Part shown: positions 31,030-45,928 of the stretch, piece after piece
Numbering within the stretch: the stretch's first letter is position 1
Layout of the letters: each line of letters begins with the position of its first letter
Origin: an uncultured Alphaproteobacteria bacterium
Lineage (GTDB): Bacteria > Pseudomonadota > Alphaproteobacteria > Sphingomonadales > Sphingomonadaceae
Assembly (NCBI GenBank): GCA_963781165.1
Contig: CAWADZ010000004.1
Location: forward strand, 33,975 to 97,974
Reading direction: 5' to 3'
DNA: 64,000 nt
Made by a program: the position numbers and the translations under genes
The notes under the pieces: generated by a model
Told to the model about the DNA's origin: nothing
Database searches by the model: none
What the model saw: only the letters and a program-made list of their open reading frames with translations

Positions 31030-32574
31030 ATGACCATGGCCATGACCCAGCAAACACATCAGCCCGATACGGACGTTCTTATCATCGGGGCGGGCCTGTC
31101 CGGCATCTCCATGGCGGGCCACATGGAAATGCTGTGCCCGGATCGCAGCTACACCATTCTGGACCGCCGGGACCAGCTGGGCGGTACTTGGGATTTGTTC
31201 CGCTATCCCGGTGTGCGCTCAGACAGCGACATGCACACGCTCGGCTTCATCTTCGAGCCGTGGAAGCATGATGACGCGATTGCCGATGGCCCTGCGATCC
31301 TCGAATATCTGAACCGCGTTGTCGATGAACGCGGCATCCGCGAACATATGCGGTTCGGCGAGGAAGTTCTGAGCGCCGACTGGGATAGCAACACGGCCTG
31401 CTGGACGATCACGTCGCGCAGCAAGGATGGCAAGGAAAGCGTCATCACCGCGCGCTGGCTGTATTTCGGCAGCGGCTATTACGATTACGACAATCCGCAT
31501 GATCCGCAGATTCCCGGCATCGATGCCTTTGGCGGGCAGGTGATCCATCCGCAGTTCTGGCCCGAAGATCTGGATTACACGGGCAAGAACGTTGTCATCA
31601 TCGGATCGGGCGCAACGGCGATCACGATGGTGCCCGCAATGGCTGACGACGCGGCAAGCGTTACCATGCTCCAGCGCACGCCGACATGGATGGGCAAAGG
31701 GCCGCGGCAGGATAAGTGGGATCATCGCTTTCGACGCTGGTTCCCTGAAAAGGTCGCTTACTGGCTTACCCGCCGCAAAAATATCCTCTTCCGCGATTAC
31801 ATCTTCAGCCTGTCGCGCCGCAATCCGCAAAAACTGGCGGACAAGCTGCGCGGAATGGTGCGAGGATCGCTGGGCGAACTCTACAATCCCAAGGACTTCG
31901 AACCGCCCTACAATCCGTGGGAGCAGCGCCTGTGCCTGGTGCCCGATGGGGACCTGTTCAAGGCCATGCGCAAGGGCAAGGCGCATATCGTTACCGATCA
32001 TATCGAAGGCTTCGACGCAGGCGGCGTGAAGCTGAAGTCGGGCAAGCATTTACCTGCCGACATCGTTGTAACCGCCACCGGGCTTCGGCTGGTGCTGGCG
32101 GGCAAAGTGCAGGTTTCGATGGACGGCAAGCCGGTCGATTTCACCGATCACTATTTCTATCGCGGCACCATGTTTTCCAACATGCCCAACCTCAGCTTCG
32201 TGTTCGGCTATCTCAATGCCAGCTGGACTTTGCGGGCCGATGCCAACGCCCGCTACGCCTGCGACGTGCTGAACGACATGACCAAGACGGGTGCAAATGT
32301 GGCCGTAGCGCAGCTTGCGAAAGAAGATGAGCCGGAGACAGTCGCACCGTGGGATTATTCGTCCGGCTATCTCCAGCGCGCGAAGGATTTGATGCCCAAG
32401 GTCGGGCCGGATCGTCCGTGGTCTCTGAAGCATGATTACCTCGCTGACATAAGGGATTTCCGTCAGCGCCCAGTGCGTGACGGTGTGCTGCGCTTTTATG
32501 CCGTGAACGCTGCCGCCTCGTCAGAAGCGGAAAGACCGGAAGAAGCGGACCATCAGGCCATTGCCGCAGAATGA
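31030..32574 (+). CDS. Baeyer-Villiger/flavin monooxygenase (EthA-like)
   Basis: GAGLSG, GGTWDLFRYPGVRSDSD, BVMO fingerprint FGGQVIHPQFWP, and GSGATA. Confidence 0.9.
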   Translation: MTMAMTQQTHQPDTDVLIIGAGLSGISMAGHMEMLCPDRSYTILDRRDQLGGTWDLFRYPGVRSDSDMHTLGFIFEPWKHDDAIADGPAILEYLNRVVDERGIREHMRFGEEVLSADWDSNTACWTITSRSKDGKESVITARWLYFGSGYYDYDNPHDPQIPGIDAFGGQVIHPQFWPEDLDYTGKNVVIIGSGATAITMVPAMADDAASVTMLQRTPTWMGKGPRQDKWDHRFRRWFPEKVAYWLTRRKNILFRDYIFSLSRRNPQKLADKLRGMVRGSLGELYNPKDFEPPYNPWEQRLCLVPDGDLFKAMRKGKAHIVTDHIEGFDAGGVKLKSGKHLPADIVVTATGLRLVLAGKVQVSMDGKPVDFTDHYFYRGTMFSNMPNLSFVFGYLNASWTLRADANARYACDVLNDMTKTGANVAVAQLAKEDEPETVAPWDYSSGYLQRAKDLMPKVGPDRPWSLKHDYLADIRDFRQRPVRDGVLRFYAVNAAASSEAERPEEADHQAIAAE

Positions 32575-32584
32575 GCCAGCTTCG

Positions 32585-33349
32585 ATGAGCGTTTCAGACA
32601 AGGTATGGACCGCCGCGCTGGTAGTGATTGGCGATGAAATCCTGTCAGGCCGAACGCAGGACAAGAACATCGCGCAGGTCGCCCGCTGGTTGCAGGTGCA
32701 GGGTATTCGCCTGTCAGAAGTGCGGGTCGTGTCCGATGACATGGGCGCTATCGCTGACGCCGTGAACCCGCTTCGAACCGCGCATGATTATCTCTTCACT
32801 ACCGGAGGTATTGGCCCGACCCATGATGACATCACAGTTGATGCCGTCGCCGCGGCGCTGGGCGTTAAAGTGGTCGTGCACCCCAAAGCGCGCGCGATGC
32901 TGGAAGACTATTACGCCGATAAAGCTGGCGGGCTGACAGAAGCACGGCTGCGCATGGCGCGCGTGCCAGAAGGCGCGGATCTGATTCCCAATCGCATGTC
33001 CGGCGCACCCGGCATTCGCCACGGAAACGTCTTCCTGATGGCCGGTGTTCCGCACATCACAGCGCAAATGCTGGACGGGCTGACCGGTACGCTGGAAGGC
33101 GGAGCGCCGTTGCTGAGCGAAACGGTTGGCTGCTGGACCGCCGAAAGCGAAGTGGCGGACATTTTGCGCGAAGTCGAAGCTGCGCATGACGACTGCCAGA
33201 TCGGCAGTTATCCCTTCTTCCGCGAAGGCCGCATCGGTGCCAATTTCGTTATCCGTTCGACCAGCGCTGAAGTCCTGCAAAGCGCGGTCGATACGCTATC
33301 CGAAGCGCTGGGCGAGGAAGGCCATGATTTCACTCCCGGCGGAATTTGA
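32585..33349 (+). CDS. CinA-like molybdopterin-binding-domain protein
   Basis: VIGDEILSGRTQDKN, TTGGIGPTHDDIT, MAGVP. Confidence 0.88.
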   Translation: MSVSDKVWTAALVVIGDEILSGRTQDKNIAQVARWLQVQGIRLSEVRVVSDDMGAIADAVNPLRTAHDYLFTTGGIGPTHDDITVDAVAAALGVKVVVHPKARAMLEDYYADKAGGLTEARLRMARVPEGADLIPNRMSGAPGIRHGNVFLMAGVPHITAQMLDGLTGTLEGGAPLLSETVGCWTAESEVADILREVEAAHDDCQIGSYPFFREGRIGANFVIRSTSAEVLQSAVDTLSEALGEEGHDFTPGGI

Positions 33350-33359
33350 GTAACACAAG

Positions 33360-34217
33360 GTGGCTCCTCCCGGAATAACTCCAAATACGAACATACCGGC
33401 CGAACCGGGCAAAAGCCGTGTGCTTGCCTTGCTTCGGGCATATCCCTTTATTCTGCCTTGGGCTGTGTGCTGTCTCACGCTCAATCTCGGCTACCTTTCG
33501 GTTTTCGCGATAAGCGATCCTAAATTTTCTGCAGCTCTCATCATCAACTCGCTGGTAAATACTACAGCCGCATTCCTTGTGGGCGTAGCGTTCGCGCGGT
33601 TGCTTCAAACGATGCTTTTTCGCCTGCCCCCCGCATTTCAACTCGCGGGACACGTCCTGCTCGCGCCGGTCTATTCCATCACATGGTATGTGACGGTCAT
33701 CACCGCGATGGGATGGGCCGCTGGATCGATCTTTACCGGTGCGGCGATCGCGCCATTCCAAGGCCCCGCTTTCCCGTGGCAGATATTTCAGGGCATTGCC
33801 CTCTATTTCGCCATCGCGCCGCTCGCATATCTATCCCGCTACGGCCCGGGAGCGCTTAACCCCGCTGAACAGGATTCCGCCGCCGCTGCTCCCGACGCAC
33901 CGGCAATGCTGGTGCGCGATGGCGACACGTTGATGCGGTTTGAACCTGACCAGATCGTACAAATCCGGGCGCAGGACGATTACAGCGAAATCGTCGAGTT
34001 AACGACGCGGCGGCTGGTTCGCAGTTCGCTCACCCATCTGGAGGCGCAATTGCCAGCCGGTTTCGTGCGCATCCATCGCTCCACCATCGTCAATTCGCGC
34101 AGGATTGTCCGAACAGAGCCTGCGGGCAATGGCCGCATGACGGTGCATCTGGAAAATGGCGACTCTGTCGATGCCAGCCGAGCAGGTGCTAAAGCACTGC
34201 GGCAGCTGGTGCTCTAA
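33360..34217 (+). CDS. Membrane-anchored LytTR transcriptional regulator (copy 1)
   Basis: About four TM helices, a linker, then a LytTR domain (AQDDYSEI; FVRIHRSTIVN; ASR). Confidence 0.87.
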   Translation: MAPPGITPNTNIPAEPGKSRVLALLRAYPFILPWAVCCLTLNLGYLSVFAISDPKFSAALIINSLVNTTAAFLVGVAFARLLQTMLFRLPPAFQLAGHVLLAPVYSITWYVTVITAMGWAAGSIFTGAAIAPFQGPAFPWQIFQGIALYFAIAPLAYLSRYGPGALNPAEQDSAAAAPDAPAMLVRDGDTLMRFEPDQIVQIRAQDDYSEIVELTTRRLVRSSLTHLEAQLPAGFVRIHRSTIVNSRRIVRTEPAGNGRMTVHLENGDSVDASRAGAKALRQLVL

Positions 34218-34225
34218 CACCGTTG

Positions 34226-34275
34226 GCCATTCGCCCGCTCAAAACGTCCGTTTAAGGAAATTCTGGCCGCTTTTC
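34226..34275 (+). promoter_or_regulatory. Putative LytTR-responsive promoter element (copy 1)
   Basis: 29/50 ungapped identity to 40291-40340; half-sites GCCATTCGCC and TCCGTTTAAG are 21 bp apart. Confidence 0.5.
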
Positions 34276-34300
34276 GGCAGTTTGCGGCAAATCCCGTGGG

Positions 34301-35620
34301 ATGATGAAAAGCCGCTTTCTCCCGATTGCCCCCGCATGGTTTGTATTCATTGTTTTTCTTGCAGCCAATCTGGCCTCCGGAATGGCAGCAGCCCAGTCGG
34401 AATCCTTGCCGCCGCAAGAGACTGAGCGCGCGCCGAGGACGAACCCTGATGCTGGCAGTGTCGCCTACACGAACGGTTCATGGCTACAGCGGGACGGCGA
34501 TGGCGAACGCTGGGTCCGTGAGACGCGCTATGCCATTGCCGGTGTGTTTGTGGATGGGCCAATGGTGCGGGTGGACAGGACTGTCGACCTGGCCGGGCAA
34601 TATCTGATTCCGCCGCTGGCCGAAGGGCACAACCACACCGTCGAAGGCGAATGGACGCAGGAGGTTGCCGCAAGTCTGGTGCAACAAGGCATCTTCTATT
34701 TCCGCAACCCCTCAAATGTTGGCGATGTCGCAAGGCGCAACCGGCCCTATTGGGAACAGCCCGGCACGCTGGACGTCGCGTTCTCTCACGGCGCGCTGAC
34801 CGGGACCGGCAGCCATCCCGTCCCGCTCTATCGCAGGCTGGCCTCGCTCTACGGACTCGATCCGGAGGCGCTGGACGGCGTTGCCTTTTTCGAGCTCGAC
34901 ACTATCGCGCAGCTCGAAGCTCGCTGGCCAAGCATTCTCGCGGGCAATCCGGATTTCATCAAGATCATCCTTGGCGACAGTACCGGAGAGAACCAGCAGA
35001 GCCTGACAATCCCGGTGGCCCGCCGCGCTGTTGCGCTTGCCCATGCCAGCGGGCTTCGGGTTACGGCGCATATCTGGACCGCTGGCGATCTGGCGACGGC
35101 CGCGGCAATCGGGGTGGATGAAGTGGCGCATCTGCCTGGATACAACTGGGGCGACATGCCGCGCGAGGCCTTTGTTATATCGCCGCAAATAGCGCAGGCC
35201 CTCGCTCAAGGCGATATTGCCGTGCAAACCACCAGCATAATCGTTGCCGATGTAGGGGACGCCTGGCGCGATCCGGGCGCTCCGTTCGATAGGTACGCGC
35301 AGCTTCACCGCACAAATTTGCGGGCCTTGCTGGACGCAGGGGTTAGGCTGAGCATCGCAACCGATCAGGGCCGCTCCACTTTCGACGAGGCGGAATTCCT
35401 CCGCTTTCTTGACGTGATGGATGATCGCGCGCTTCTCGGGTTCTGGCTGGATACCGGGCCCTCGATCTTCCCGGGGCGCGCGATCGGACGATTACGAACC
35501 GGCTTCGAGGCCTCATTCATCGCGCTGGAATGCGATCCTTTCGTCCGCTTCGAATGCCTGCACGCGATTGGCCATCTGGAAAAGCAGGGCCAAGAGATAG
35601 AACGGAGTAATGCATCATGA
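34301..35620 (+). CDS. Secreted amidohydrolase-family protein
   Basis: Signal peptide; LIPPLAEGHNH (HxH), DFIKI, RVTAH, EVAH, IATD. Confidence 0.8.
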   Translation: MMKSRFLPIAPAWFVFIVFLAANLASGMAAAQSESLPPQETERAPRTNPDAGSVAYTNGSWLQRDGDGERWVRETRYAIAGVFVDGPMVRVDRTVDLAGQYLIPPLAEGHNHTVEGEWTQEVAASLVQQGIFYFRNPSNVGDVARRNRPYWEQPGTLDVAFSHGALTGTGSHPVPLYRRLASLYGLDPEALDGVAFFELDTIAQLEARWPSILAGNPDFIKIILGDSTGENQQSLTIPVARRAVALAHASGLRVTAHIWTAGDLATAAAIGVDEVAHLPGYNWGDMPREAFVISPQIAQALAQGDIAVQTTSIIVADVGDAWRDPGAPFDRYAQLHRTNLRALLDAGVRLSIATDQGRSTFDEAEFLRFLDVMDDRALLGFWLDTGPSIFPGRAIGRLRTGFEASFIALECDPFVRFECLHAIGHLEKQGQEIERSNAS

Positions 35621-36873
35621 GAATTCTTGCCGTCCTGCTGGTGTCGCTAGCCGCATGGCTTCCACAAGCGGCAATTGCGTCCACGCTCTACACCAATGCC
35701 CTTTGGTGGGATGGGACCGATTTCGTCCCGGGTGATCGAACAGTACAGGACGGCGTGTTTGTGGCGCAGGGTGGGGAGCCTACCCGCAGCGTCGACCTTG
35801 GCGGCGCCTATGTCATTCCGCCCCTTGGCGATGCGCATGTCCACAATTTTGACCTGCCCGATTATCTGGCGCAGCTGACCGCGGATTTCGTGAACGACGG
35901 TGTGCTTTACATCTGGAACCTCGGCGCGGAATCGGAACAGCTTCCTGCAGCGCGAGAGGCATTGGCAAGGCAGCATCGGCCTGCCGTTTCTTTCGCCGGA
36001 CCCGCCTTCACGGCGCCCGGCGCGCACGCCATCCCTTACATCGAGGCACAATTGCAGGGCGTGCAATGGTGGTCACTTTCGCCAGAGGAGAAGCTTCGCG
36101 TCCGCTATGCCGAAAACGGAGAGGGCAAACGCTATTTCGCTATTGCCAATCCGGCTGATCTCGATGCTGTTTGGGCGGACTATCTGGCGGCAGATCCTGA
36201 TTTTGTGAAAGTCATCCTGTTCGGTTCTGCTGCCGGAACCCGCGAAGACCCCCGCGCGGTAGACGAGCCGACTCTGCTAGCCTTGGCAGAGCGGGCGCGG
36301 GCGGCTGAATTGCCGCTGGTCATTCACATTGAAACCGAGGGCGATCTGGCTCTTGCCCTGGATGCCGACGTGTCTCTGCTGGCGCACGCGCCGCAATATG
36401 CAGGTCCGTTTGAGCCTTACAATGCAGCGCTTGTCGAGCGACTGGCGCAAAGCGGCGCGGCGATTGCGCCCACTTTCGGCCGGCTGGCGTTGATGGAGGC
36501 TTACGTCCCTGCCGAATACCAGATGGATGCCGACCAATCGCAGCGGATCGAACGGGCCCATGCCGCGCGGATTGCGCAAATGCACAGCGCCGGTGTGCGG
36601 CTGGTCCTCGGTTCCGACCTCATTGACATGACCGCACTGGACGAGGCGATTTACTGGGAGCGCATTGGCGCCTTGTCGGGCACCGACCTGCTCAATATCG
36701 CGGTGCGCGATACGCCCGCGCTACTCAAAGGCCGCGCAGATGCCGGATGCCTGTCGGACGGCTGCCCCGCTTCTTTTCTGGCACTGCCTGCTGATCCCAG
36801 AGGCAACATGGCCATCATTCGTGAGGCGAGCCACCGGGTATTTGGCGGCGCGGCGGTCGCTAATGCCAATTAG
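35617..36873 (+). CDS. Secreted amidohydrolase-family protein
   Basis: Signal peptide; VIPPLGDAHVH, DFVKV, LVIH, LAH, LGSD; ATGA overlap with the previous gene. Confidence 0.82.
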   Translation: MRILAVLLVSLAAWLPQAAIASTLYTNALWWDGTDFVPGDRTVQDGVFVAQGGEPTRSVDLGGAYVIPPLGDAHVHNFDLPDYLAQLTADFVNDGVLYIWNLGAESEQLPAAREALARQHRPAVSFAGPAFTAPGAHAIPYIEAQLQGVQWWSLSPEEKLRVRYAENGEGKRYFAIANPADLDAVWADYLAADPDFVKVILFGSAAGTREDPRAVDEPTLLALAERARAAELPLVIHIETEGDLALALDADVSLLAHAPQYAGPFEPYNAALVERLAQSGAAIAPTFGRLALMEAYVPAEYQMDADQSQRIERAHAARIAQMHSAGVRLVLGSDLIDMTALDEAIYWERIGALSGTDLLNIAVRDTPALLKGRADAGCLSDGCPASFLALPADPRGNMAIIREASHRVFGGAAVANAN

Positions 36874-36885
36874 ACTGCGGAATGA

Positions 36886-36919
36886 GAAAGGGCCGGAGAA
36901 TCGCTTCCCCGGCCCTTTC
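36886..36919. terminator. Bidirectional terminator between the amidohydrolase and rplA
   Basis: GAAAGGGCCGG / CCGGCCCTTTC, an 11-bp inverted repeat between convergent genes. Confidence 0.75.
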
Positions 36920-36950
36920 GCCTGTTCAATGTCTGTAGGACAGCGGATTT

Positions 36951-37005
36951 TCTCTGCGCTACCGCTTCGCTACTTGAGCGCATTATCTCTGCGCTACCGC
37001 TTCGC
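36951..37005. repeat. Perfect 20-bp direct repeat x2 in the rplA 3' region
   Basis: TCTCTGCGCTACCGCTTCGC at 36951-36970 and 36986-37005, with a 15-bp spacer. Confidence 0.9.
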
Positions 37006-37008
37006 CAG

Positions 37009-37701
37009 TTAAGCGCCTTCGACCTCTGCAAGGTCGATCTTCAGGCCCGGGCCCATCGTGCTGGTCAGCGCGATCTTGCGGACATATTTGCCCTTCGATC
37101 CCGTCGGCTTGGCGCGCACGATTGCGTCGGTGATCGCCTTGAAGTTTGCCTTGATGTCGGCATCCTTGAACGACATCTTGCCGATGCCGGAGTGGATGAT
37201 GCCCTGCTTCTCAACACGGAATTCAACCTGGCCGCCCTTGGCGTCCTTTACAGCCTGTTCCACGTTGGGAGTGACAGTGCCCAGCTTCGGGTTCGGCATC
37301 AGGCCCTTGGGACCCAGAACCTTACCGAGACGGCCGACAACGCCCATCATGTCCGGCGTGGCGATCACGCGGTCATAATCGAGATTGCCGTTCTGCATGT
37401 CTTCCATCAGGTCTTCAGCGCCAACCTTGTCGGCGCCGGCAGCAGTTGCCTTTTCGGCGTTTTCGCCGCGGGCAAACACTGCAACCTTCACGTCCTTGCC
37501 GGTGCCCGAAGGCAGCGACACCATGCCGCGAACCATCTGGTCCGCATGGCGCGGATCAACGCCGAGGTTCATGGCAACTTCGACGGTTTCGTCAAACTTG
37601 GCCTTGTGCTCGCGAAGAACCGACAGAGCTTCGTCGAAAGTGTACAGCTTTTCGTTATCGAGCTGCGCCACAACTTTCTGCTTCTTGGTCATTTTTGCCA
37701 T
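37009..37701 (-). CDS. rplA: 50S ribosomal protein L1
   Basis: [25 protein letters not shown]; [12 protein letters not shown]. Confidence 0.98.
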
Positions 37702-37705
37702 TGGA

Positions 37706-38137
37706 TCAGCCCTCCACCACTTCGATGCCCATCGAACGGGCGGAACCGGCGATGATCTTTGTCGCCTGGTCGATGTCGTTTGCGTTGAGATCCTTCATCT
37801 TGGTCTCGGCAATTTCGGCAAGCTGGCTGGTCTTGATGGAGCCGATGATATCCTTGCCGGGCTCTTTCGAACCGGATTTGATCTTCATCGCCTTCTTGAT
37901 CAGGAAGCTGGCAGGCGGCGTCTTGGTGACGAATGTGAACGACTTGTCCGCAAAGACCGTGATCTTCGTCGGGATCGGAGCGTTCTTTTCCATGTCCTGC
38001 GTGGCAGCGTTGAACGCCTTGCAGAATTCCATGATGTTCACGCCGCGTTGACCCAGAGCCGGGCCGATAGGGGGTGACGGATTGGCTGCGCCGGCAGGCA
38101 CCTGAAGGCTGATATAGCCGTCAATTTTCTTGGCCAT
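37706..38137 (-). CDS. rplK: 50S ribosomal protein L11
   Basis: [30 protein letters not shown]; AGGAGG RBS. Confidence 0.98.
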
Positions 38138-38192
38138 GATGGCCTCCTTTTTCGCACTGTTGCCCCGGGTTTGACACCAGGGCTCATGTTAA

Positions 38193-38226
38193 GCGGTCTA
38201 GCGAAGCGCGATTGCCCTTCTCCCGC
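38193..38226 (-). promoter_or_regulatory. Putative L1 autoregulatory hairpin in the rplK leader
   Basis: Minus strand GCGG-GAG-AAG..GC/GC..CTT-CGCT-AGA-CCGC, a stem with an asymmetric internal loop about 55 nt before the rplK start. L1 feedback on rplKA is established in other bacteria. Confidence 0.4.
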
Positions 38227-38552
38227 GTGGATTCCCGAACTGTTTGTTGGGAGCCGGGCAGATAGAGGCAAAGCGGCGGAAAATCAAGCAATCGTGCAAA
38301 GCTGAAAGAGGGTGACAAAGGTTACACCCTGTCACCCTGCCTGAAAGAGCATATCCATCTGTTTCTAAATCGTTTTTTGCTCCGTTTACCAGGGTGACAC
38401 ATTTGCCTGAAAAATTGGCAATGCGGCGCCGGGGAATTAACCGACCTATTGATCAGGATATCGACTGTAGGAAACCGCGTTGGGGCCCTTGCATCGCAGA
38501 TATCCTGCGCCGAAAGCTGATTGCGGGCAGCGCAACACAGGACGAGCAAACG

Positions 38553-39353
38553 ATGAATACCCCCGCCATATCCGTCGCGGATGCGCCCCCTCCAGTCGCG
38601 CTGACCGCCAAGGCTTCCATCGGCTGGCCGCTGTTTATCGCCCAATTGGTAAGCGTGGTGATCGTCTATTTCATCGGCAGTACCCTGCCGCTGGTCCCCT
38701 CCATGATTACGCAGGTTTCCGCAGGCGTGACCGATCCCCAGTTCACCTCATTGGAGGTCGCGTTGACCGTGATGGTCAGCATGGCTCTCGCCCTGTTACT
38801 GTGCTGGGTGTGGCTGCGCCGCGAAGGCCGCGTGGCAGAGGCGTGGGACCTGTCCACTCCCGCTAGCTGGAGCAAGGTGCTTGGCTTGGCCGCGATGGCG
38901 ACCGTAGGTTCCATACTGATCTTCACAGTAGGAGCCGCCTTGCTGCAGGCTGCGGGACTGCCCGCGCCAGACGCCAGCTTCGTGCTCGATCTTGTGACCG
39001 AAAGCCCGCTGATGTTCGCCATCTGGGTCATCGGCGTCGCAATCCTTGCCGCCGGGGTCGGCGAAGAACTGCTGTGGCGCGGCTTTCTGATGGACCGGTT
39101 GGAACGGCTGGGCGGACTGCGCGGCCGCGTGTGGCTTGTGCTGGCGGTGCAGGCGATTTTGTTCGGCCTGCCGCACGCCTACCAAGGGCTTGCCGGGATG
39201 ATCCTGACCGCCGCAATCGGCCTCCTGCTGGGCTGGGTGCGGATCATGCAGCGCGGCAATCTTTGGGCGGTGATTATCGCCCATGCCAGCGTGGACGTGA
39301 TCATGATGAGCCTGGCCTATGCAAGCAAGACAGGATGGATCCCGGTACCCTGA
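38553..39353 (+). CDS. CPBP (CAAX-protease/Abi) family intramembrane metalloprotease
   Basis: Polytopic; GEELLWRG (EExxxR), LFGLPHAY, IIAHASVD. Confidence 0.88.
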   Translation: MNTPAISVADAPPPVALTAKASIGWPLFIAQLVSVVIVYFIGSTLPLVPSMITQVSAGVTDPQFTSLEVALTVMVSMALALLLCWVWLRREGRVAEAWDLSTPASWSKVLGLAAMATVGSILIFTVGAALLQAAGLPAPDASFVLDLVTESPLMFAIWVIGVAILAAGVGEELLWRGFLMDRLERLGGLRGRVWLVLAVQAILFGLPHAYQGLAGMILTAAIGLLLGWVRIMQRGNLWAVIIAHASVDVIMMSLAYASKTGWIPVP

Positions 39354-39451
39354 AGCATAGATCCGGCCCGCCTGCGATCTACACACGCGTTTTTCGCGCT
39401 TGCCCATTGCGCGGCGCTCAATCACATTGATGCAAAGGACATGGCAAACCG

Positions 39452-40276
39452 GTGCAGCATTCGTCGATTAGTGAGAGCAAACAGCAGCCTGGCCCGCTGA
39501 CAGGCGCGCAGTTCGGATGGCTCGGCATTGCAGCACTCTTCGTGATCTATCTTGCCGTGTTTTCGCTGACCCGCCCGGGCGGGATTGGCGAACAATTGTG
39601 GCGGGCGACTTACAACACAGCGCCGATCATTCCGCTCGCATTCGGGACGCACGCATTGCTGAATGCGCAAGTCTGGCCGCGCCGGCTGGCGGTGGTCCTT
39701 GCATTGCAATTGCCGCTGGCGCTGACCTTCGCATTTGCATGGTATCTGGGCATCATCGTGCTGCGCGATTTGCCCGGAAACTGGGTGCAGGATGGCTTCG
39801 CCGTGCGCCCCTTCGTGCCCATCGCGCTGGTATGGCAGATGTTTCAGGGTATGACATTGTATGCGGTGATCGCGCTCGCCAGCCTCTCACTCCACCTGTC
39901 GCTCCGGTTGCGTACAGCGCAGGAGGCTGGCCCGGCACCGCGCCCCGCCGTCCCCGAAGGCCTGCTGGTCAAAGACGGGAATGAACATCACGCAGTGGAG
40001 CATGGCGAGATCGTGCGCATTTCCGGCGCGGGCGATTACTGCGAACTGCATCTGACCGGCCGCACCATCATGTCCACGACCTCGCTGGCGGAATTCGAGC
40101 AGCGGCTGCCGGACGGCCTGTTCTTTCGCGCGCACCGGTCCCACATCGTGCGCGTTGGCGCGGTTACGCGGACCGAACCGGCAGGCAATGGCCGCACGAC
40201 GCTGCACCTGCTCGGCGGAAGCACATTGGTAACCAGCCGCTCCGGCACACGGGCTCTGCGCGAGGCATCGAGTTGA
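39452..40276 (+). CDS. Membrane-anchored LytTR transcriptional regulator (copy 2)
   Basis: TM helices with WQMFQG..LY (copy 1 has WQIFQG..LY); LytTR domain FFRAHRSHIV; RTEPAGNGR is identical to copy 1. Start codon uncertain. Confidence 0.87.
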   Translation: MQHSSISESKQQPGPLTGAQFGWLGIAALFVIYLAVFSLTRPGGIGEQLWRATYNTAPIIPLAFGTHALLNAQVWPRRLAVVLALQLPLALTFAFAWYLGIIVLRDLPGNWVQDGFAVRPFVPIALVWQMFQGMTLYAVIALASLSLHLSLRLRTAQEAGPAPRPAVPEGLLVKDGNEHHAVEHGEIVRISGAGDYCELHLTGRTIMSTTSLAEFEQRLPDGLFFRAHRSHIVRVGAVTRTEPAGNGRTTLHLLGGSTLVTSRSGTRALREASS

Positions 40277-40290
40277 TAGCGAGGCGATTG

Positions 40291-40340
40291 GCTGTTCACC
40301 GGCGCTGAGTGTCGATTGGCAGAAAATCGGATGGGTTTTC
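40291..40340 (+). promoter_or_regulatory. Putative LytTR-responsive promoter element (copy 2)
   Basis: Ungapped homology to 34226-34275, in the same position just after the LytTR stop codon. Confidence 0.5.
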
Positions 40341-40387
40341 AATCGCAAGGGTAGCCTCCGCGTGACTCAATCGAACGGAGCGTTTCC

Positions 40388-41755
40388 ATGCGATCACTGC
40401 TGACCCTCGCTGCCCTGCTTTCGCTGTCCATGGCCGGTCCTGCCGCCGCGCAGGATGATGCCACAGCCTTCGACAACGTGACCATAATCACGATGACCGA
40501 AAGCGGCACTTTTCATGGCGGCCATGTGATCGTGGATGATGGTTTGATCGTGGCGGTTGGCAAAGGGCCGCTGCCCGCCGGGTTTGAGGGGCAAGTGATC
40601 GCAGGCGGTGGCGCTGTGCTGATGCCCGGCATCGCCGACATGCATGTCCATTATTATGCGGACGACATGGGCGTCCTGTATCTGGCGAACAGCACCACTT
40701 TCGTGCGCAATCTGACCGGCAGTGTGCAGACCGTGCGGCGCGATCAGGCGGCCCGCGATGGCGCGCTGCTCGCCCCGCGAGTGGCCACCAGCGGCCCGAT
40801 CATCGATTGGGGAGAGGCTTCGCCGGACGATTTCTTCATCCGTGTGCAGAGCATACCGGAAGCGGTGGGCGCAGTCCGGTCACAGGGCCGGTCCGGCTTT
40901 GACGCGGTGAAGCTTTACAGCGGCCTGCCCGCCGACACCTACCGCGCCGCTGCCGAAGAAGCGCGCCGGCAGGGAATGCGCATTTTCACCCACGTGCCCG
41001 ATGCGATGAGCGTGCAGGAAGTGCTCGCTCTGGAAGTCGATTCCATCGAACATCTGGATGGATATGCGCGGGCGTTGGTGCGCGATAATTTCACCACCGA
41101 CGCGCGCCGCCCATGGCCGATGATGTGGGCCAATGCGGACCGGGACAAATTCGCCGGGCTGGTGGACGCCACACTTGCGGCTGGCACATGGAACGTGCCG
41201 ACCTTCGCAATCACTTACGGACGGCTATATTCAGCCGATCCGGACGCCTATTTCGCACGTCCAGAGGCGATTTATCTGCCGGCATGGGCTGATTACTGGG
41301 CGCAGAGCGCGGGACAATATGCGGACAACATCCCGTATTACGAGGCGCAATTGCGCGAAAAAGGTGCCTTCACGCGAACGTTATATGATGCAGGCGCCGG
41401 CGTGCTGATCGGCAGCGACGGGCCCAATCCCTTCGTCACGCCCGGCTATGCCATACATGATGAGCTGCGCGGCTTTGCGGAAGCGGGCTTCACCAACGCC
41501 GAAATTCTGCGCATCGCAACTGTCGATGCAGCACGGTTCATGGGGATGGAAGGACGCATGGGTGTGATTGCGCCGGGAGCACGTGCCGATTTGATAATGC
41601 TGCGCGCTGACCCGCATGACGATCTGGAGATCTTGCGTGAACCGCTGGGCGCAATGGTCGGCGGCAATTGGTGGGACCGCGAAGCAATTGACGCGGCGCT
41701 GGCGGACCGTGTGGCCCGGCTGGCGGCAGAGCGGGAACAGATGGGGCGGGAATAA
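40388..41755 (+). CDS. Secreted amidohydrolase-family protein
   Basis: Signal peptide; LMPGIADMHVH, DAVKLY, IFTH, SIEH, IGSDG, GVIAPGARADLIML. Confidence 0.88.
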   Translation: MRSLLTLAALLSLSMAGPAAAQDDATAFDNVTIITMTESGTFHGGHVIVDDGLIVAVGKGPLPAGFEGQVIAGGGAVLMPGIADMHVHYYADDMGVLYLANSTTFVRNLTGSVQTVRRDQAARDGALLAPRVATSGPIIDWGEASPDDFFIRVQSIPEAVGAVRSQGRSGFDAVKLYSGLPADTYRAAAEEARRQGMRIFTHVPDAMSVQEVLALEVDSIEHLDGYARALVRDNFTTDARRPWPMMWANADRDKFAGLVDATLAAGTWNVPTFAITYGRLYSADPDAYFARPEAIYLPAWADYWAQSAGQYADNIPYYEAQLREKGAFTRTLYDAGAGVLIGSDGPNPFVTPGYAIHDELRGFAEAGFTNAEILRIATVDAARFMGMEGRMGVIAPGARADLIMLRADPHDDLEILREPLGAMVGGNWWDREAIDAALADRVARLAAEREQMGRE

Positions 41756-41773
41756 TCCCGCCCGCACATCTGT

Positions 41774-42313
41774 TTACTTGACCAGTTCGACCTGATCGAA
41801 ATCGAGTTCCACCGGCGTTGCGCGGCCGAAGATCGAAACGCTGACCTTGACCTTCGCCTTGTCGAAATCGAGTTCCTCGACTTCGCCGTTGAAGCTGGCG
41901 AACGGGCCTTCCAGCACCTTGACCTGATCGCCGATTTCGTAATCGACGCTGATGTCTTTCTTCGGTGCAGACTTGGCCTCTTCGACACCGCCGAAATAGC
42001 GCGCAGCTTCTTTTTCGCTGATCGCCTGCGGCTTGGCGCCTGAACCGAGGAAGCCGGTGACCTTGGGCGTGTTTTTCACGAGGTGATACACGTCATCCGT
42101 CATGTTCAGCTTTGCCAGCACGTATCCGGGCATGAACTTGCGTTCGACCTGAACCTTCTTGCCGCGCTTGATTTCCGTGATGGTTTCGGTCGGCACTTCG
42201 ACCTCTTCGACACCTTCGGAAAGACCGAGACGTTCGGCTTCGGACAGGATCGCTTCGCGTACCTTGTTCTCGAAACCGGAATATGCGTGGATGATGTACC
42301 AGCGGGCAGCCAT
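41774..42313 (-). CDS. nusG: Transcription termination/antitermination factor NusG
   Basis: RWYIIHAYSGFENKV; KOW domain VLEGPFASFNG; VSIFGRATPVEL. Confidence 0.98.
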   Translation of the reverse strand: MAARWYIIHAYSGFENKVREAILSEAERLGLSEGVEEVEVPTETITEIKRGKKVQVERKFMPGYVLAKLNMTDDVYHLVKNTPKVTGFLGSGAKPQAISEKEAARYFGGVEEAKSAPKKDISVDYEIGDQVKVLEGPFASFNGEVEELDFDKAKVKVSVSIFGRATPVELDFDQVELVK

Positions 42314-42385
42314 TGTTGTCTCTTCTTCCCTCAAAAAATCCGTACGGCCCGGCCTGAATTTCGGCGGGCGGGTTAAATCACCGCG

Positions 42386-42610
42386 TCAAAGCAGTTCGAG
42401 CAAGCTGCGAACAACCCAGCCGAAGAACGAATCGACGCCCAGGAAAAACAGCGACAGGAACACCACCATGATGCCCACGAAAATCGCCGTTCGCACGGTT
42501 TCGGGCCATGTCGGCCAGACAACCTTGGAGGTTTCGGAGCGGACCTGACGGACGAATTCGCCCGGACTGGTCTTCTTCTTTACTGGCGCATTCGTTGTTG
42601 GTTCGGCCAT
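42386..42610 (-). CDS. secE: Preprotein translocase subunit SecE
   Basis: FVRQVRSETSKVVWPT plus one TM helix, directly upstream of nusG. Confidence 0.96.
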   Translation of the reverse strand: MAEPTTNAPVKKKTSPGEFVRQVRSETSKVVWPTWPETVRTAIFVGIMVVFLSLFFLGVDSFFGWVVRSLLELL

Positions 42611-42900
42611 TGCCTGTGTGCTCGCCTGAATAATTTCACTCGTCTCGCCGACCGGGTAACGGGTAGGTCTCCGGGCCGCCCCGGGCTAGGTCCGGGAGGG
42701 GCTTGGCGATTATCCGATGTCGGAAGACGAGGGGGTATTTAGGGCCGTGCTCGCCTCTTGGCAAGTGCTGCGCGCGGCCATTTGCTCCCCAGGAAAGGCC
42801 GACAATTCTCACCCGAATGCGAAATGGGGGCTTTGCAGCGGCGCTTTGGCCCTTTAGCAACCCTGCCTTCGGGGAAGAAAACCACATAAGGGGTCACTAC

Positions 42901-44436
42901 GTGGCAGCACAAGACGCACCGGTCAGCCTGGTCGACAGAGTTACCAATGTTTCGGATTTCATCTGGGGCGGTACGTGGAACGGGGAGGCGCTGTCGTGGC
43001 TTTCCATAAACGGCCAGCCGATCCCGCCGATGACGCTGATCCTGCTGGGCATCGGCATGTGGATCATGATCGGTCTGCGCTTTTACCCGATCGTCAAATT
43101 GGGCAGTGCCTTCAAAGGCCTGTTTGCTGGCCGCAAGAGCCAAGGATCAGGCGAGATTTCGCCGTTCGCAGCCCTTTCCACGGCGCTTTCAGGGCAAGTC
43201 GGCACAGGAAACCTGGCCGGTGTCGCAACCGCAATTTCCCTTGGCGGACCAGGGGCGATCTTCTGGATGTGGATCACGGCGCTGATCGGCATGGCGCTTG
43301 CCTTTGCCGAAGGTTCGCTGGCCATTCGTTACCGCGAAAAGACATCGGACGGCGTCTATCGCGGCGGCCCGATGACCTACATCATGATGGGCCTGGGCAA
43401 GAAATGGACTTGGCTCGCCATCGTTTTCTGTATCGGCACGCTGTTCAGCGCGCTGGTAACGGGCAATTCCATTCAGGCCAACGCCATCGCGGACGGCATG
43501 AACGAACTGTTCGGTATCGAGGAATGGGTCGGCGGCCTTGTGACTGCGATCCTGGTCTTCATCGTCATCATCGGCGGCATCAAATCAATCGGCGGCGTGG
43601 CGGAAAAGATCATTCCGTTCATGGCGGGCGCCTACATCATCATGGCCGTGATCGCGCTGATCCTGAACTTCCAGGATCTGCCCGAAACCTTCAGCCTGAT
43701 CTTTAACGGCGCGTTCAACCCGCAGGCCGCTACCGGCGGTTTTGCTGGCGCGGCGATCATGCTGGCCATCCGTGCCGGTGTGGCGCGCGGACTGTTCTCC
43801 AACGAGGCGGGCCAAGGCTCTACCCCGATCGCTCATGCTGTCGCGCAGACAAACGATCCGCAGCAGCAAGGCCGCATGGCGATGCTGGGCACGTTCATCG
43901 ATACAATCGTAATCTGCACCATGACAGCGCTGGTCATGTTGACAGTCGAAGGCAATTTCACGGCAGGCGGCGAAACCGTGATCCATGCGTGGAATTCGGA
44001 CCTTGAAGGCTTCGCCATGACCAGCGGCGCCTTTGCCGCAGCCTTCCCGTTTGAGATATTCAGCGTCCCGCTGGGTACGCTGATCGCAAGTGTCGCGCTG
44101 ATCCTGTTCGTGTTCACCACGCTGCTGACGTGGAGCTATTACGGGGAACGGGCAATCACCTTCATTTACGATCGTACGCCGGGCTCCACCCGTGCGGGCG
44201 AGAAGGTGCTGCACATGATCTGGCGCGTACTGTGGTGCGTAGTCATCTACCTCGGCTCCACACTCGACCTGACCCTGGTCTGGCGGATGGGCGACATTTC
44301 CAACGCTGCGATGGCGCTGCCGAACTTGCTGGCGCTGCTGCTGCTGTCAGGTGTGGTGTTCAAGCTGGCGCGGGGCGAAAAGGATGCCGGGCCAACGCAT
44401 CTGGCCGATACTCCCGAAGAACCGGAAGAGTATTAG
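42901..44436 (+). CDS. Alanine/glycine:cation symporter (AGCS family)
   Basis: LSGQVGTGNLAGVA, GGPGAIFWMW, GGPMTY, RGLFSNEAGQGS; GTG 42901 follows AAGGG. Confidence 0.93.
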   Translation: MAAQDAPVSLVDRVTNVSDFIWGGTWNGEALSWLSINGQPIPPMTLILLGIGMWIMIGLRFYPIVKLGSAFKGLFAGRKSQGSGEISPFAALSTALSGQVGTGNLAGVATAISLGGPGAIFWMWITALIGMALAFAEGSLAIRYREKTSDGVYRGGPMTYIMMGLGKKWTWLAIVFCIGTLFSALVTGNSIQANAIADGMNELFGIEEWVGGLVTAILVFIVIIGGIKSIGGVAEKIIPFMAGAYIIMAVIALILNFQDLPETFSLIFNGAFNPQAATGGFAGAAIMLAIRAGVARGLFSNEAGQGSTPIAHAVAQTNDPQQQGRMAMLGTFIDTIVICTMTALVMLTVEGNFTAGGETVIHAWNSDLEGFAMTSGAFAAAFPFEIFSVPLGTLIASVALILFVFTTLLTWSYYGERAITFIYDRTPGSTRAGEKVLHMIWRVLWCVVIYLGSTLDLTLVWRMGDISNAAMALPNLLALLLLSGVVFKLARGEKDAGPTHLADTPEEPEEY

Positions 44437-44451
44437 AGAGCGCGGGAAATC

Positions 44452-44501
44452 GGGGCGAGGTTTCGGGTAAGCCAGCAGGCGAACCCGGCCCCGCCCCTTT
44501 T
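44452..44501 (+). terminator. Probable terminator after the AGCS gene
   Basis: GGGGCG...CGCCCC outer stem and CGGGT/ACCCG inner stem, followed by TTTT. Confidence 0.5.
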
Positions 44502-44528
44502 CGCGGGCAAGGCCAGTTCACTCCAGTA

Positions 44529-44675
44529 TCAGGCGCGTCCGAGGAGCCGGTCGAGAAAGCTCGGCTCTTCCATGGGATGGATCTTGCCGTGCGTCATCAT
44601 GCGAAGGCTGGTGTCTGAATAAGGCTTCGGATTGTTCCAACCGTCAGACCGGCCAGTGCGGAATATCTTCCTCAT
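44529..44675 (-). CDS. Small hypothetical protein (48 aa)
   Basis: MRKIFRTGRSDGWNNPKPYSDTSLRMMTHGKIHPMEEPSFLDRLLGRA; occupies an otherwise empty gap and ends in an amphipathic FLDRLLG. Confidence 0.45.
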   Translation of the reverse strand: MRKIFRTGRSDGWNNPKPYSDTSLRMMTHGKIHPMEEPSFLDRLLGRA

Positions 44676-44761
44676 TTTGAAAACCCTGTTGCTGCCCCGT
44701 CCTGCGATAGACAAGTCGCGTAGGCTTGTTGGGTTCCCCCGCCGCTCCTGCGGGAACGTGT

Positions 44762-45928
44762 TTAGGATGGTTTTTTGGCAGCGCCGCCGCGCGACCAGAC
44801 CAGCCAGACCAGCGCAATAGACGCCAGCGGCATGAGGTTCGCGCCAAGCGGAAGCGCAGCCGCCCTGGTGGCGTAGGGCGCGAAATACAGCACGACGAGC
44901 AGCAGCTTCTCAAACGGGCGAAAGCCCTGCTGCAATCCTTCGCGCACCAGCCACAGCAGCGGCAGGATCAGGAACGGCAGATCGTAATTGAACAGATAGG
45001 GCGAGGCGAGCGCCGTTGCGGCCAGCACCAGCGCGCCGCTGGCAAGAGCATCGCGGCCCATCCGCCGCCACGCCATGAACGCCGCCGCCATCATGGCCAG
45101 CGCGCTAGCCAGATTGACGGCGAGCGCAAATCCTGTCGGCGCGAACAGGCGCAGCTGGCTGTAGGGCGTGGCCATGCGCAAATAGAACTCCGTGTCGTCG
45201 CTCTGCATGATCAGCGCGCTGACATCCCAGCTGGTGGTATAGGCGGCCAGCGTCTGCGTGCCGAATACCGCCCAGGACAGCAGGACAAGCCCAATTGCGC
45301 TCGTCCCCGCCGCCAGAAATGCGCGCCATTTGCCCGCTCCGGCAAGCCAGAAGGGGACCAGCAGCGCCAGATGGGGCTTGATGATCAGCGCGCCGAGCAA
45401 CAATCCGGCGGCGGCAGGCCGCTTGTCCAGCAACACCGCGCCCCCCACCAGCAGCGCGCCGGTCAGCAGCCCCAATTGCGCATGGCCAGCGGCGAGCAAT
45501 GCCCCCGGAAAGACCAGCACCAGCGGCCACAGGCGCGGGACCGCGCGAATGCTCGCCCAGCTCCACGCGGCGAAAGTTAGTGCGACCCATGCAATCCACG
45601 CGGCAGGAAACGGGAGCGCCCCGAAAGGTGCAGCGACAAACAGGAATGGCGGCGGATTGACGAAGGCAAACCACCCTTCACTGCCCGTGGCGGTCTGCAC
45701 ACGTTCTTGCACGGCAAGGTCATATGCCGCCGCCGGATCGCCTGCGATGGCGACATGCCCTGCGCCCCAGAAGGCGAGGAAATCCGTGCCGTCCGCGCCC
45801 ATCGCTTTCAGGAAGGAATTGGCCAGCAGCGCCAGACTGGCGAGACCGAGGATCACCGCATAACCGCGCACACGGGCGGGGTTCAGCCAATCGGCGTTGC
45901 GAATGTGATTGAGGAAAGGCTCGCGCAT
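44762..45928 (-). CDS. GT-C fold glycosyltransferase family 87 / DUF2029 membrane protein
   Basis: GTDFLAFWGAG, FVNPPPF, GQLG-like HAQLG, IKPHL, SPYLFNYD; polytopic. Confidence 0.85.
   Translation of the reverse strand: MREPFLNHIRNADWLNPARVRGYAVILGLASLALLANSFLKAMGADGTDFLAFWGAGHVAIAGDPAAAYDLAVQERVQTATGSEGWFAFVNPPPFLFVAAPFGALPFPAAWIAWVALTFAAWSWASIRAVPRLWPLVLVFPGALLAAGHAQLGLLTGALLVGGAVLLDKRPAAAGLLLGALIIKPHLALLVPFWLAGAGKWRAFLAAGTSAIGLVLLSWAVFGTQTLAAYTTSWDVSALIMQSDDTEFYLRMATPYSQLRLFAPTGFALAVNLASALAMMAAAFMAWRRMGRDALASGALVLAATALASPYLFNYDLPFLILPLLWLVREGLQQGFRPFEKLLLVVLYFAPYATRAAALPLGANLMPLASIALVWLVWSRGGAAKKPS

Follow-up and report, generated by a model that had tools for sequence, protein, structure and literature searches.

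Membrane-anchored LytTR regulators paired with exported hydrolase genes and a candidate direct-repeat operator: two units in a Sphingomonadaceae genome and their relatives

What does a LytTR-type transcription factor control when it carries its own membrane helices and stands directly in front of genes for secreted enzymes? The question is raised by a 64,000-nucleotide stretch of DNA from an uncultured Alphaproteobacteria bacterium of the Sphingomonadaceae (GenBank assembly GCA_963781165.1, contig CAWADZ010000004.1, positions 33,975 to 97,974), referred to here as the window, in which two such regulators are each followed by genes for exported enzymes of the amidohydrolase (AH) superfamily, AH1 and AH2 after regulator 1 and AH3 after regulator 2. 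The answer that we consider likely is that a fused membrane/LytTR one-component regulator locally controls the adjacent exported hydrolase by means of a direct repeat and a promoter, the whole forming a self-contained unit. The components of the two units and the evidence for each are as follows (TM, transmembrane; ORF, open reading frame; positions are those of the window).

33360-34217, plus strand: regulator 1, TM-LytTR protein of 285 amino acids (ORF; Pfam LytTR 69.1 bits; family profile 299 bits)
34225-34258, plus strand: candidate operator dyad 1 (position-weight matrix; comparison across loci)
34301-35620, plus strand: AH1, amidohydrolase-superfamily enzyme with a signal-peptide-like segment, 439 amino acids (ORF; metal ligands; homology)
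35617-36873, plus strand: AH2, second such amidohydrolase, 418 amino acids (ORF; 33% identity to AH1)
39452-40276, plus strand: regulator 2, TM-LytTR protein of 274 amino acids (Pfam LytTR 58.6 bits; family profile 292 bits)
40290-40323, plus strand: candidate operator dyad 2 (position-weight matrix; comparison across loci)
40388-41755, plus strand: AH3, amidohydrolase with a signal-peptide-like segment, 455 amino acids (Pfam Amidohydro_1 63.3 bits, Amidohydro_3 50.5 bits)

A first-pass annotation of this DNA had described two paralogous regulators that fuse a TM bundle to LytTR and share the motifs WQxFQGxxLY and RTEPAGNGR, and both reading frames and both motifs are indeed present. An alignment of the two proteins shows 35% identity across 241 residues (E 1e-33), and in each the LytTR domain (PF04397, cut-off 22.6 bits) is C-terminal. 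No Pfam match to a receiver domain (Response_reg, PF00072) was obtained in either regulator, matches to the NCBIfam LytR and BtsR models are restricted to the LytTR part and fall far under cut-off, and the N-terminal halves match nothing in Pfam or NCBIfam, so that they are neither MHYT nor 5TM-LYT. An AlphaFold model of regulator 1, built on 104 family sequences (mean pLDDT 90.1), has membrane helices at residues 18-52, 58-86, 91-121 and 137-161, a disordered, low-complexity, Ala/Pro-rich linker at about 162-182 and the LytTR beta-fold at 183-285 with pLDDT above 90. Foldseek relates this model to the LytTR structures 3d6w and AgrA-DNA complexes (TM-score 0.81-0.83) and also to ComE; it finds no significant relative of the membrane bundle, the best match outside the LytTR proteins being LTC4 synthase at E 0.15. 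Because the charged residues of regulator 1 are concentrated in the N-terminal tail, the TM2-TM3 turn and the stretch after TM4, the protein fits a topology in which both termini are cytoplasmic and only two short loops reach the periplasm. Eight bundle residues, Y45, N67, W109, F133, W140, Q141, Q144 and G145, are invariant or near-invariant in the family (W140 is invariant, and Q141, Q144, G145 and Y45 are each conserved in at least 90% of the 104 sequences), and all of them map to the periplasm-proximal halves of the helices or to the TM3-TM4 loop.

Is the association of regulator and enzyme peculiar to this genome? An exhaustive HMMER search over 1.84 billion representatives returned 151 representative clusters at E<=1e-30, nearly all of 255-300 amino acids and with the same architecture, and a single clade of the family holds 236 further clusters at 90% identity. 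A genome scan restricted to one genome per species returned 80 loci, in each of which genes were called and the gene adjacent to the regulator was classified. These loci come from Sphingomonadales, Caulobacterales, Hyphomonadaceae, Maricaulis and the gammaproteobacterial Rhodanobacteraceae (Dyella, Rhodanobacter), with stray family contigs binned as Burkholderiales. An exported-hydrolase gene stands directly beside the regulator in about 77 of 81 non-redundant loci (74 hydrolase-class genes and 3 encoding an aspartyl-protease domain), and the pairing seen twice in the window is thus recurrent in other genomes; it is also found, independently, in the RefSeq annotation of a Polymorphobacter replicon. 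The genes beside the regulator are distributed over the 81 loci as follows.

29 of 81 loci: Peptidase_S15/PepX_C protein, 726-822 amino acids
29 of 81 loci: BAAT/dienelactone-hydrolase-type protein (22 downstream, 7 divergent upstream)
12 of 81 loci: amidohydrolase
2 of 81 loci: PF00144 beta-lactamase-fold protein
1 of 81 loci: other alpha/beta hydrolase
1 of 81 loci: Fib_succ_major protein
3 of 81 loci: retropepsin-like aspartyl-protease domain (L004; fused to an amidohydrolase in L009 and L010)
3 of 81 loci: unresolved short contigs
1 of 81 loci: DUF6615 protein, a real exception (L070)

The amidohydrolase, which the first-pass annotation had taken as the partner, is therefore a genuine partner but not a specific one, and the partner may come from any of at least six exported hydrolase families. 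The partner enzymes appear to be interchangeable, their common theme being the predicted hydrolysis of peptide or amide bonds outside the cytoplasm. A simple hydropathy test detects an N-terminal hydrophobic export segment in 63 of 67 targets, and two of the remaining four resemble signal peptides by eye. No third conserved gene was found among the 119 other flanking genes, in which 164 Pfam families are represented and none occurs more than four times, nor is there a recurrent histidine kinase among them. The exception, in Caulobacter vibrioides OR37 (L070:6923-8796), consists of a family member without a dyad followed by the DUF6615 protein, with no hydrolase. Aspartyl-protease genes lie directly after the regulator at L009:7811-10459, L010:6939-9590 and L004:7874-9226; in the first two of these loci the protease domain is fused to an orthologue of AH1 and an orthologue of AH2 follows, and the dyads of all three are weak or unrecognisable.

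If the regulator acts on its neighbour, where would it bind? The spacer between regulator and hydrolase is nearly constant in length, mostly 85-150 nucleotides. A matrix was derived from the best two sites in each spacer, with a minimum separation of 15 nucleotides as the sole constraint on spacing, and it describes a direct repeat with the 13-mer half-site consensus GTCCGTTC(A/G)CCGA. The half-sites of a pair are 20, 21 or 22 nucleotides apart in 46 of 53 cases (10, 31 and 5 pairs, respectively), with a mode at 21 that was not imposed. Scanning both strands of all loci, 2.0 Mb in total, yielded 61 dyads, 43 of them within 95 nucleotides after a regulator stop codon; almost all the others lie in the same zone behind a regulator that the gene caller had missed, or upstream of the regulator on the other strand, directed at a divergent BAAT-type gene, and at most three are unrelated. 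The dyad accompanies the regulator whether the target is downstream or divergent, and its position and period recur in about 66 related loci. Its core, CCGTTC(G/A)CC, agrees with the AlgR 9-mer CCGTTCGTC at 8 of 9 positions (PMC4064291). In HdrR and BrsR, by experiment, and in the LytTR regulatory systems (LRS) as generally described, a pair of 9-bp direct repeats separated by 12 bp directly precedes the -35 element (PMC6193735), and the predicted sites described here share this geometry and its place beside the -35. With the spacers anchored on the proximal half-site, a T-tract appears at +1 to +5, so that the dyad abuts a T-rich -35 region; CCG occupies +9 to +11, and about +28 to +31 there is a weak -10 that contains TA (CTA). 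In four S15 loci (L023, L035, L051 and L072) the ATG follows the proximal half-site by about 40-41 nucleotides and a CTA-type -10 lies about 7 nucleotides before the start codon; these distances suggest that the mRNAs of several S15 targets are leaderless. The matrix scan found no autoregulatory dyad upstream of either regulator of the window or of co-directional regulators elsewhere.

The whole window contains exactly two dyads at a permissive threshold, ahead of AH1 and AH3, and its dinucleotide shuffles contain a mean of 0.11 dyads at a stricter threshold. Dyad 1, with half-sites GGCCATTCGCCCG (34225-34237) and GTCCGTTTAAGGA (34246-34258) scoring 8.5 and 10.2, starts 8 nucleotides after the regulator 1 stop and ends 42 nucleotides before AH1, with an A/T tract after it. 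GCAAAT at 34287-34292 is a possible -10 of AH1, and the AH1 mRNA may itself be leaderless, positions 34287-34303 resembling the S15 loci. Dyad 2, with half-sites GGCTGTTCACCGG (40290-40302) and GTCGATTGGCAGA (40311-40323) scoring 11.5 and 10.8, starts 14 nucleotides after the regulator 2 stop and ends 64 nucleotides before AH3; an A-tract follows it, TAGCCT at 40352-40357 is a possible -10 of AH3, and GGAG stands at 40377-40380. The period is 21 nucleotides in both dyads. A generic sigma-70 and terminator scan gave matches no commoner than in shuffles, the E. coli consensus being unsuited to this host.

How far does this arrangement correspond to systems already described? Membrane-spanning LytTR proteins of Caulobacter have been known since the domain was defined and appear again in a census of transmembrane regulators (PMC10269533). 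The sole characterised protein with four TM helices and a LytTR domain is HigX (CCNA_03131) of Caulobacter crescentus, reported in PLoS Genetics in 2026, whose full-length membrane form regulates promoters (PMC13384398). Its authors suggest a possible 'fused LRS' and note that an uncharacterised, divergent COG4188 hydrolase gene is 'almost universally' adjacent (PMC13384398); they do not propose this neighbouring hydrolase as a target (PMC13384398). The first-pass annotation had called the module of the window poorly described, which is fair, although these two elements had already been put forward for HigX; in our literature search no paper turned up that deals with the family, with its operator or with a connection to S15, BAAT or amidohydrolase genes. 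HigX shares with the regulators of the window the four TM helices, the lack of a periplasmic domain, the low-complexity linker, the C-terminal LytTR domain, the occurrence in Alphaproteobacteria and the hydrolase neighbour. Two HigX orthologue sequences, from C. segnis and B. lenta, were taken from the supplement of PMC13384398 for comparison. Against the family profile they reach 30-37 bits, where members reach 284-327 bits, BLASTP finds no significant match between them and the proteins of the window (E 0.28), and a profile-profile alignment with hhalign extends over no more than the last part of TM4 and the LytTR domain; on these results orthology of the window regulators with HigX is ruled out. 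The HigX orthologues also lack WQxFQG and EPAGxGR, both features of the family, and the HigX hydrolase is of COG4188 and divergent, whereas the hydrolases beside family members belong to other families. No ctrA neighbour was found in the family loci with an approximate CtrA query, which makes this a lead and not a strict test, the best matches there being generic regulators of at most 35% identity. As judged from these comparisons, the window regulators form a separate, uncharacterised clade that shares the architecture of HigX and its adjacency to a hydrolase.

The LRS of Streptococcus mutans, HdrRM and BrsRM, likewise combine a LytTR domain without a receiver with a membrane moiety of three to four helices that lacks an extracytoplasmic domain (PMC6193735), and their two 9-bp direct repeats, separated by a 12-bp spacer, lie just upstream of the -35 as do the candidate sites here (PMC6193735). 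In the LRS, however, the membrane inhibitor is a separate protein encoded just downstream, whereas here the helices are within the regulator and the downstream gene encodes an exported hydrolase. The LRS repeats drive their own operon, a positively autoregulatory arrangement, and the targets are bacteriocin and competence genes; the repeats described here lie downstream of the regulator, facing the hydrolase, and the predicted targets are exported hydrolases. AlgR, AgrA and ComE have the same DNA-binding fold by Foldseek (AgrA 4xqj/3bs1, ComE 4cbv) and bind tandem direct repeats, the AlgR site being nearly identical to the half-site core found here, but proteins of this type have a receiver domain and a histidine kinase, both of which are lacking here, where input would come through the fused bundle. 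BcrR of Enterococcus faecalis and the ToxR-type proteins are likewise one-component regulators and contact DNA from within the membrane (PMC10269533; PMC13384398), and in BcrR a four-helix bundle without a large external domain senses a ligand and induces a resistance operon (PMC13384398); their DNA-binding domains, helix-turn-helix or winged helix, are on the other hand N-terminal and unrelated to LytTR. Furthermore, in Bacteroidetes, genes for DUF6051 hydrolases are found together with '2TM and LytTR' genes (PMC11878206), and the theme of a membrane LytTR protein beside a hydrolase may be broader, with DUF6051 as a possible independent instance. The regulators of the window thus fall outside the LRS, the two-component LytTR regulators and the HigX family, and they would act as LytTR activators do, but with the membrane input built into the protein.

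What mechanism do these features suggest? In the reading that we favour, a four-helix bundle without a periplasmic domain would anchor the regulator in the inner membrane, and its cytoplasmic LytTR domain, probably as a dimer, would bind a pair of half-sites with a period of 21 bp. The pair begins shortly after the regulator stop and reaches the predicted -35 of a separate promoter, which would drive AH1-AH2 in the case of regulator 1 and AH3 in the case of regulator 2. An activator role is suggested because the position of the sites matches that of AgrA, ComE and HdrR, and since the sites sit in an activator position, the membrane bundle most likely switches the LytTR domain on, upon a cue in the membrane or at its outer face. 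The output would be a peptide or amide hydrolase secreted into the periplasm. Because the partners are mostly of peptidase type (S15 X-Pro dipeptidyl peptidases/CocE-NonD, COG1228, S9/BAAT, S12-type, aspartyl protease), the cell most likely uses them to degrade peptides or peptide-like amides on induction, either as nutrients or in order to detoxify them. The proposal of the first-pass annotation that a fused sensor-regulator induces the hydrolase thus gains from the pairing in about 77 of 81 loci and from the conserved LytTR-type direct repeat in the spacer; the signals that it names, a peptide, amide, lactam or acyl-lactone, are guesses, and its further element, activation by a neighbouring CPBP protease, does not stand and is taken up below.

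The enzymes themselves had been described as secreted, metal-dependent amidohydrolases, two after the first regulator and one after the second, and their reading frames, export-like segments and metal ligands bear this out. Each has an N-terminal signal-peptide-like hydrophobic segment (residues 6-24 in AH1 and 3-21 in AH3), and the metal ligands HxH, K, H, H and D of the binuclear-metal subtype are kept in order in all three; H110, H112, H257, H277 and D355 (AH1 numbering) are invariant in a three-way alignment, and the lysine lies in an FxK(I/V) or VKL strand. AH3 passes the Pfam Amidohydro models (63.3 and 50.5 bits), and AH1 (28.0 versus 29.7) and AH2 (20.3/18.9) fall just under; jackhmmer and tblastn nevertheless support the homology of AH1 with AH2 and of both with members of the family. 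AH1 and AH2 are 33% identical, AH1 and AH3 22%. Because the AH2 start overlaps the AH1 stop by 4 nucleotides (ATGA), AH2 is probably co-transcribed with AH1, and there is no operator dyad in front of AH2. The best solved relatives of AH3 are the bottromycin amidohydrolase 6i5s (E 6e-19), prolidase-type COG1228 enzymes, Cc2672 (an Arg/Lys carboxypeptidase) and amide hydrolases whose substrate is ochratoxin, and AH1 and AH2 show only marginal similarity to Cc2672 and molinate hydrolase. Across the COG1228-type amidohydrolases (prolidases Sgx9260b/c, 3feq and 3mkv; Cc2672, 3mtw; 6i5s; ochratoxinase, 4c5y), similarity to AH3 ranges from E 6e-19 to 2e-10, and they share with the AH proteins the set of metal ligands and export, which for the AH proteins is a prediction. 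The top NCBIfam model for all three proteins is a Caulobacter Xaa-Pro dipeptidase, far under its cut-off (71.6 versus 500 bits), and with scores so far below equivalog cut-offs the substrate is therefore not transferable to them. In two related loci AH3-type and AH1-type domains are fused in one protein, in the order AH3-AH1 in an exported protein of 872 amino acids (L025:1740-4358) and in the reverse order, AH1-AH3, in one of 859 amino acids (L073:7819-10398); these fusions hint at cooperation, on the same pathway, between the enzymes that the two cassettes of the window encode.

Did the two cassettes arise from one another in place? The first-pass annotation had called them twins, which holds for their architecture but not for their descent, since the regulators are only 35% and AH1 and AH3 only 22% identical, and the regulators fall in different clades; a recent tandem duplication is thus ruled out, and the two cassettes are, as judged from this comparison, old paralogous units. 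In a rough neighbour-joining tree, the regulators largely track the class of the adjacent enzyme, with one large S15 clade, BAAT clades, several amidohydrolase clades and few switches. Regulator 1 clusters with amidohydrolase-linked regulators, L006 (Erythrobacter), L004, L009 and L010, of which the last two loci keep orthologues of AH1 (46-47% identity) and AH2 (41-42%) in the same order, and regulator 2 clusters with L042, L050 and the PF00144-linked L062 and L081. A look-up of the window's regulator as an exact protein gave no record; base composition and the closest relatives point to a marine sphingomonad of Erythrobacteraceae-like type as the host. The gammaproteobacterial members (Dyella, Rhodanobacter, Pinirhizobacter; L046-L075) all have the S15 version and are nested in the alphaproteobacterial S15 clade. 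This nesting, together with a tree that tracks enzyme class, suggests that the unit of regulator, operator and enzyme is inherited and mobile as a whole and has been transferred between classes.

The other genes around the two units are the following.

37009-37701, minus strand: rplA
37706-38137, minus strand: rplK
38553-39353, plus strand: CPBP/Rce1-like intramembrane protease (longest ORF from 38394, 319 amino acids; Pfam Rce1-like 72.9 bits)
41774-42334, minus strand: nusG, convergent with AH3
42386-42610: secE, beyond nusG

The secE-nusG-rplK-rplA cluster, usually contiguous, is split in the window (37009-42610), where a 3.6-kb block on the opposite strand (CPBP, regulator 2, AH3) sits between nusG and rplK; 18 nucleotides separate the end of AH3 from that of nusG and 135 the end of AH2 from that of rplA, and rplA is not followed by rplJ and rplL in the window. 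Elsewhere, in Sphingomicrobium (L023, 6367-14105), a regulator-S15 unit precedes nusG-rplK-rplA by about 2.5 kb, and in two Caulobacteraceae/Brevundimonas loci (L041 and L052, genes upstream of 7001) the unit comes directly after rpoB-rpoC. This recurrent proximity to nusG, rplKA or rpoBC is loose and may reflect an old chromosomal position or chance. The rplK-rplA flank as such, which the first-pass annotation had made part of the cassette context, is not recurrent across related loci; the ribosomal-gene setting is incidental, and a functional link to rplK-rplA is unsupported. A CinA-like gene (MoCF_biosynth and FLAD1_M domains; 32561-33349) stops 10 nucleotides before regulator 1, which may be co-transcribed with it, and a cinA-like gene that is 67% identical also adjoins the regulator-S15 unit of Sphingosinicella (L057:10063-10809). 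Beside secE and divergent from it, about 1 kb from AH3, lies a gene of the sodium:alanine symporter family (42703-44436; 433 bits), possibly connected with an uptake of amino acids that follows peptide hydrolysis. An Rfam scan of 32000-45000 gave no match.

Several observations weigh against local control of the hydrolase through the dyad. The half-sites of the window are weak, at 8.5-11.5 bits versus up to 19 in other loci, and the proximal site of AH1 is off consensus at five positions and degenerate in its 3' half; the window dyads alone are unconvincing, and the operator case rests on the comparison across loci. The matrix was trained on the spacers that it scores, and the enrichment is therefore partly circular; the promoter elements are weakly conserved; and about 12 loci have a hydrolase without a clearly recognisable dyad. 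A run search for this organism returned DNA and metagenome assemblies and no RNA. Moreover, chromatin immunoprecipitation sequencing of HigX gave hundreds of peaks at many genomic sites with a different, inverted-repeat motif (PMC13384398), and in the parts of the paper at our disposal no called HigX peak is listed at the neighbouring hydrolase gene (PMC13384398). Such peaks, like the dyadless loci, would suit an adjacency that is a conserved neighbourhood without direct regulation, in which the regulators are global envelope regulators, as proposed for HigX, and the repeat serves another factor or purpose. We give this little credence, for the dyad stays with the regulator irrespective of where the target lies and is almost absent elsewhere in the 2.0 Mb, the repeat has the sequence and spacing of LytTR/AlgR-type sites, and the unit crosses from Alpha- to Gammaproteobacteria intact. 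Somewhat better placed, but still unlikely in our view, is the idea that the same sites are bound by a repressor, or by a constitutive, signal-independent membrane-tethered factor whose amount sets hydrolase expression. The HigX phenotypes described so far depend on abundance, and no ligand of HigX is known (PMC13384398); on the same side count the bundle's lack of a periplasmic domain and a sequence from which no ligand can be derived. Against the idea stands a dyad that ends at the -35 and covers neither the -10 nor the start site, which is the activator arrangement of characterised LytTR proteins. Moreover, polar and aromatic residues are strongly conserved in the outer part of the helices, which is hard to explain if the bundle is a mere anchor.

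The first-pass annotation had also proposed that the regulator is activated by proteolysis, the neighbouring CPBP protease cleaving it and freeing the LytTR domain. The setting invites the idea, since a CPBP gene that is catalytically intact by its motifs lies 98 nucleotides upstream of regulator 2 on the same strand, and LytTR systems of streptococci have been linked to CPBP/Abi genes. The motifs GEELLWR, FGLPH and HASVD in its translation fit EExxxR, FxxxH and HxxxD/N (PF02517), and its true start is probably the ATG at 38553. We nevertheless regard such cleavage as barely credible. No CPBP homologue was found near the other 81 loci (by jackhmmer, a Pfam scan of the 119 flanking genes and tblastn), none belongs to cassette 1, and the matrix scan found no operator dyad upstream of the CPBP gene; in Caulobacter, furthermore, a truncated, TM-less HigX was undetectable, and it was full-length HigX that carried out promoter regulation (PMC13384398). 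Its lack of recurrence rules the CPBP protease out as a partner in the module, and it is a neighbour of cassette 2 and no more.

If local activation by the membrane-anchored regulator is accepted, what would the bundle read? A tentative extension, which we think possible but rather less than even in its chances, is that the bundle is a receptor reading, at the outer leaflet, what its own exported enzyme takes as substrate or releases as product, so that the unit would be a plug-and-play sense-and-secrete switch in which the specificity of the sensor co-evolves with the class of the enzyme, and which moves between phyla whole. Candidate ligands would then be proline-containing or hydrophobic peptides, peptide-like amide xenobiotics, or antibiotics, and the primary target of the HigX clade would be the neighbouring hydrolase. 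The family offers a cleaner entry point than HigX, with one regulator, one predicted operator, one adjacent promoter and one easily assayed enzyme, as well as several hundred natural variants with differing enzyme partners. If the mechanism proposed here is correct, it would show how a transcription factor without an extracytoplasmic domain reads the envelope, and it would supply an annotation rule for the many pairs of 'LytTR family' and 'amidohydrolase / S15 / BAAT' genes in soil and marine bacteria. Such units would constitute compact inducible secretion switches, and they would point to how oligotrophs turn on the extracellular degradation of peptides and amides.

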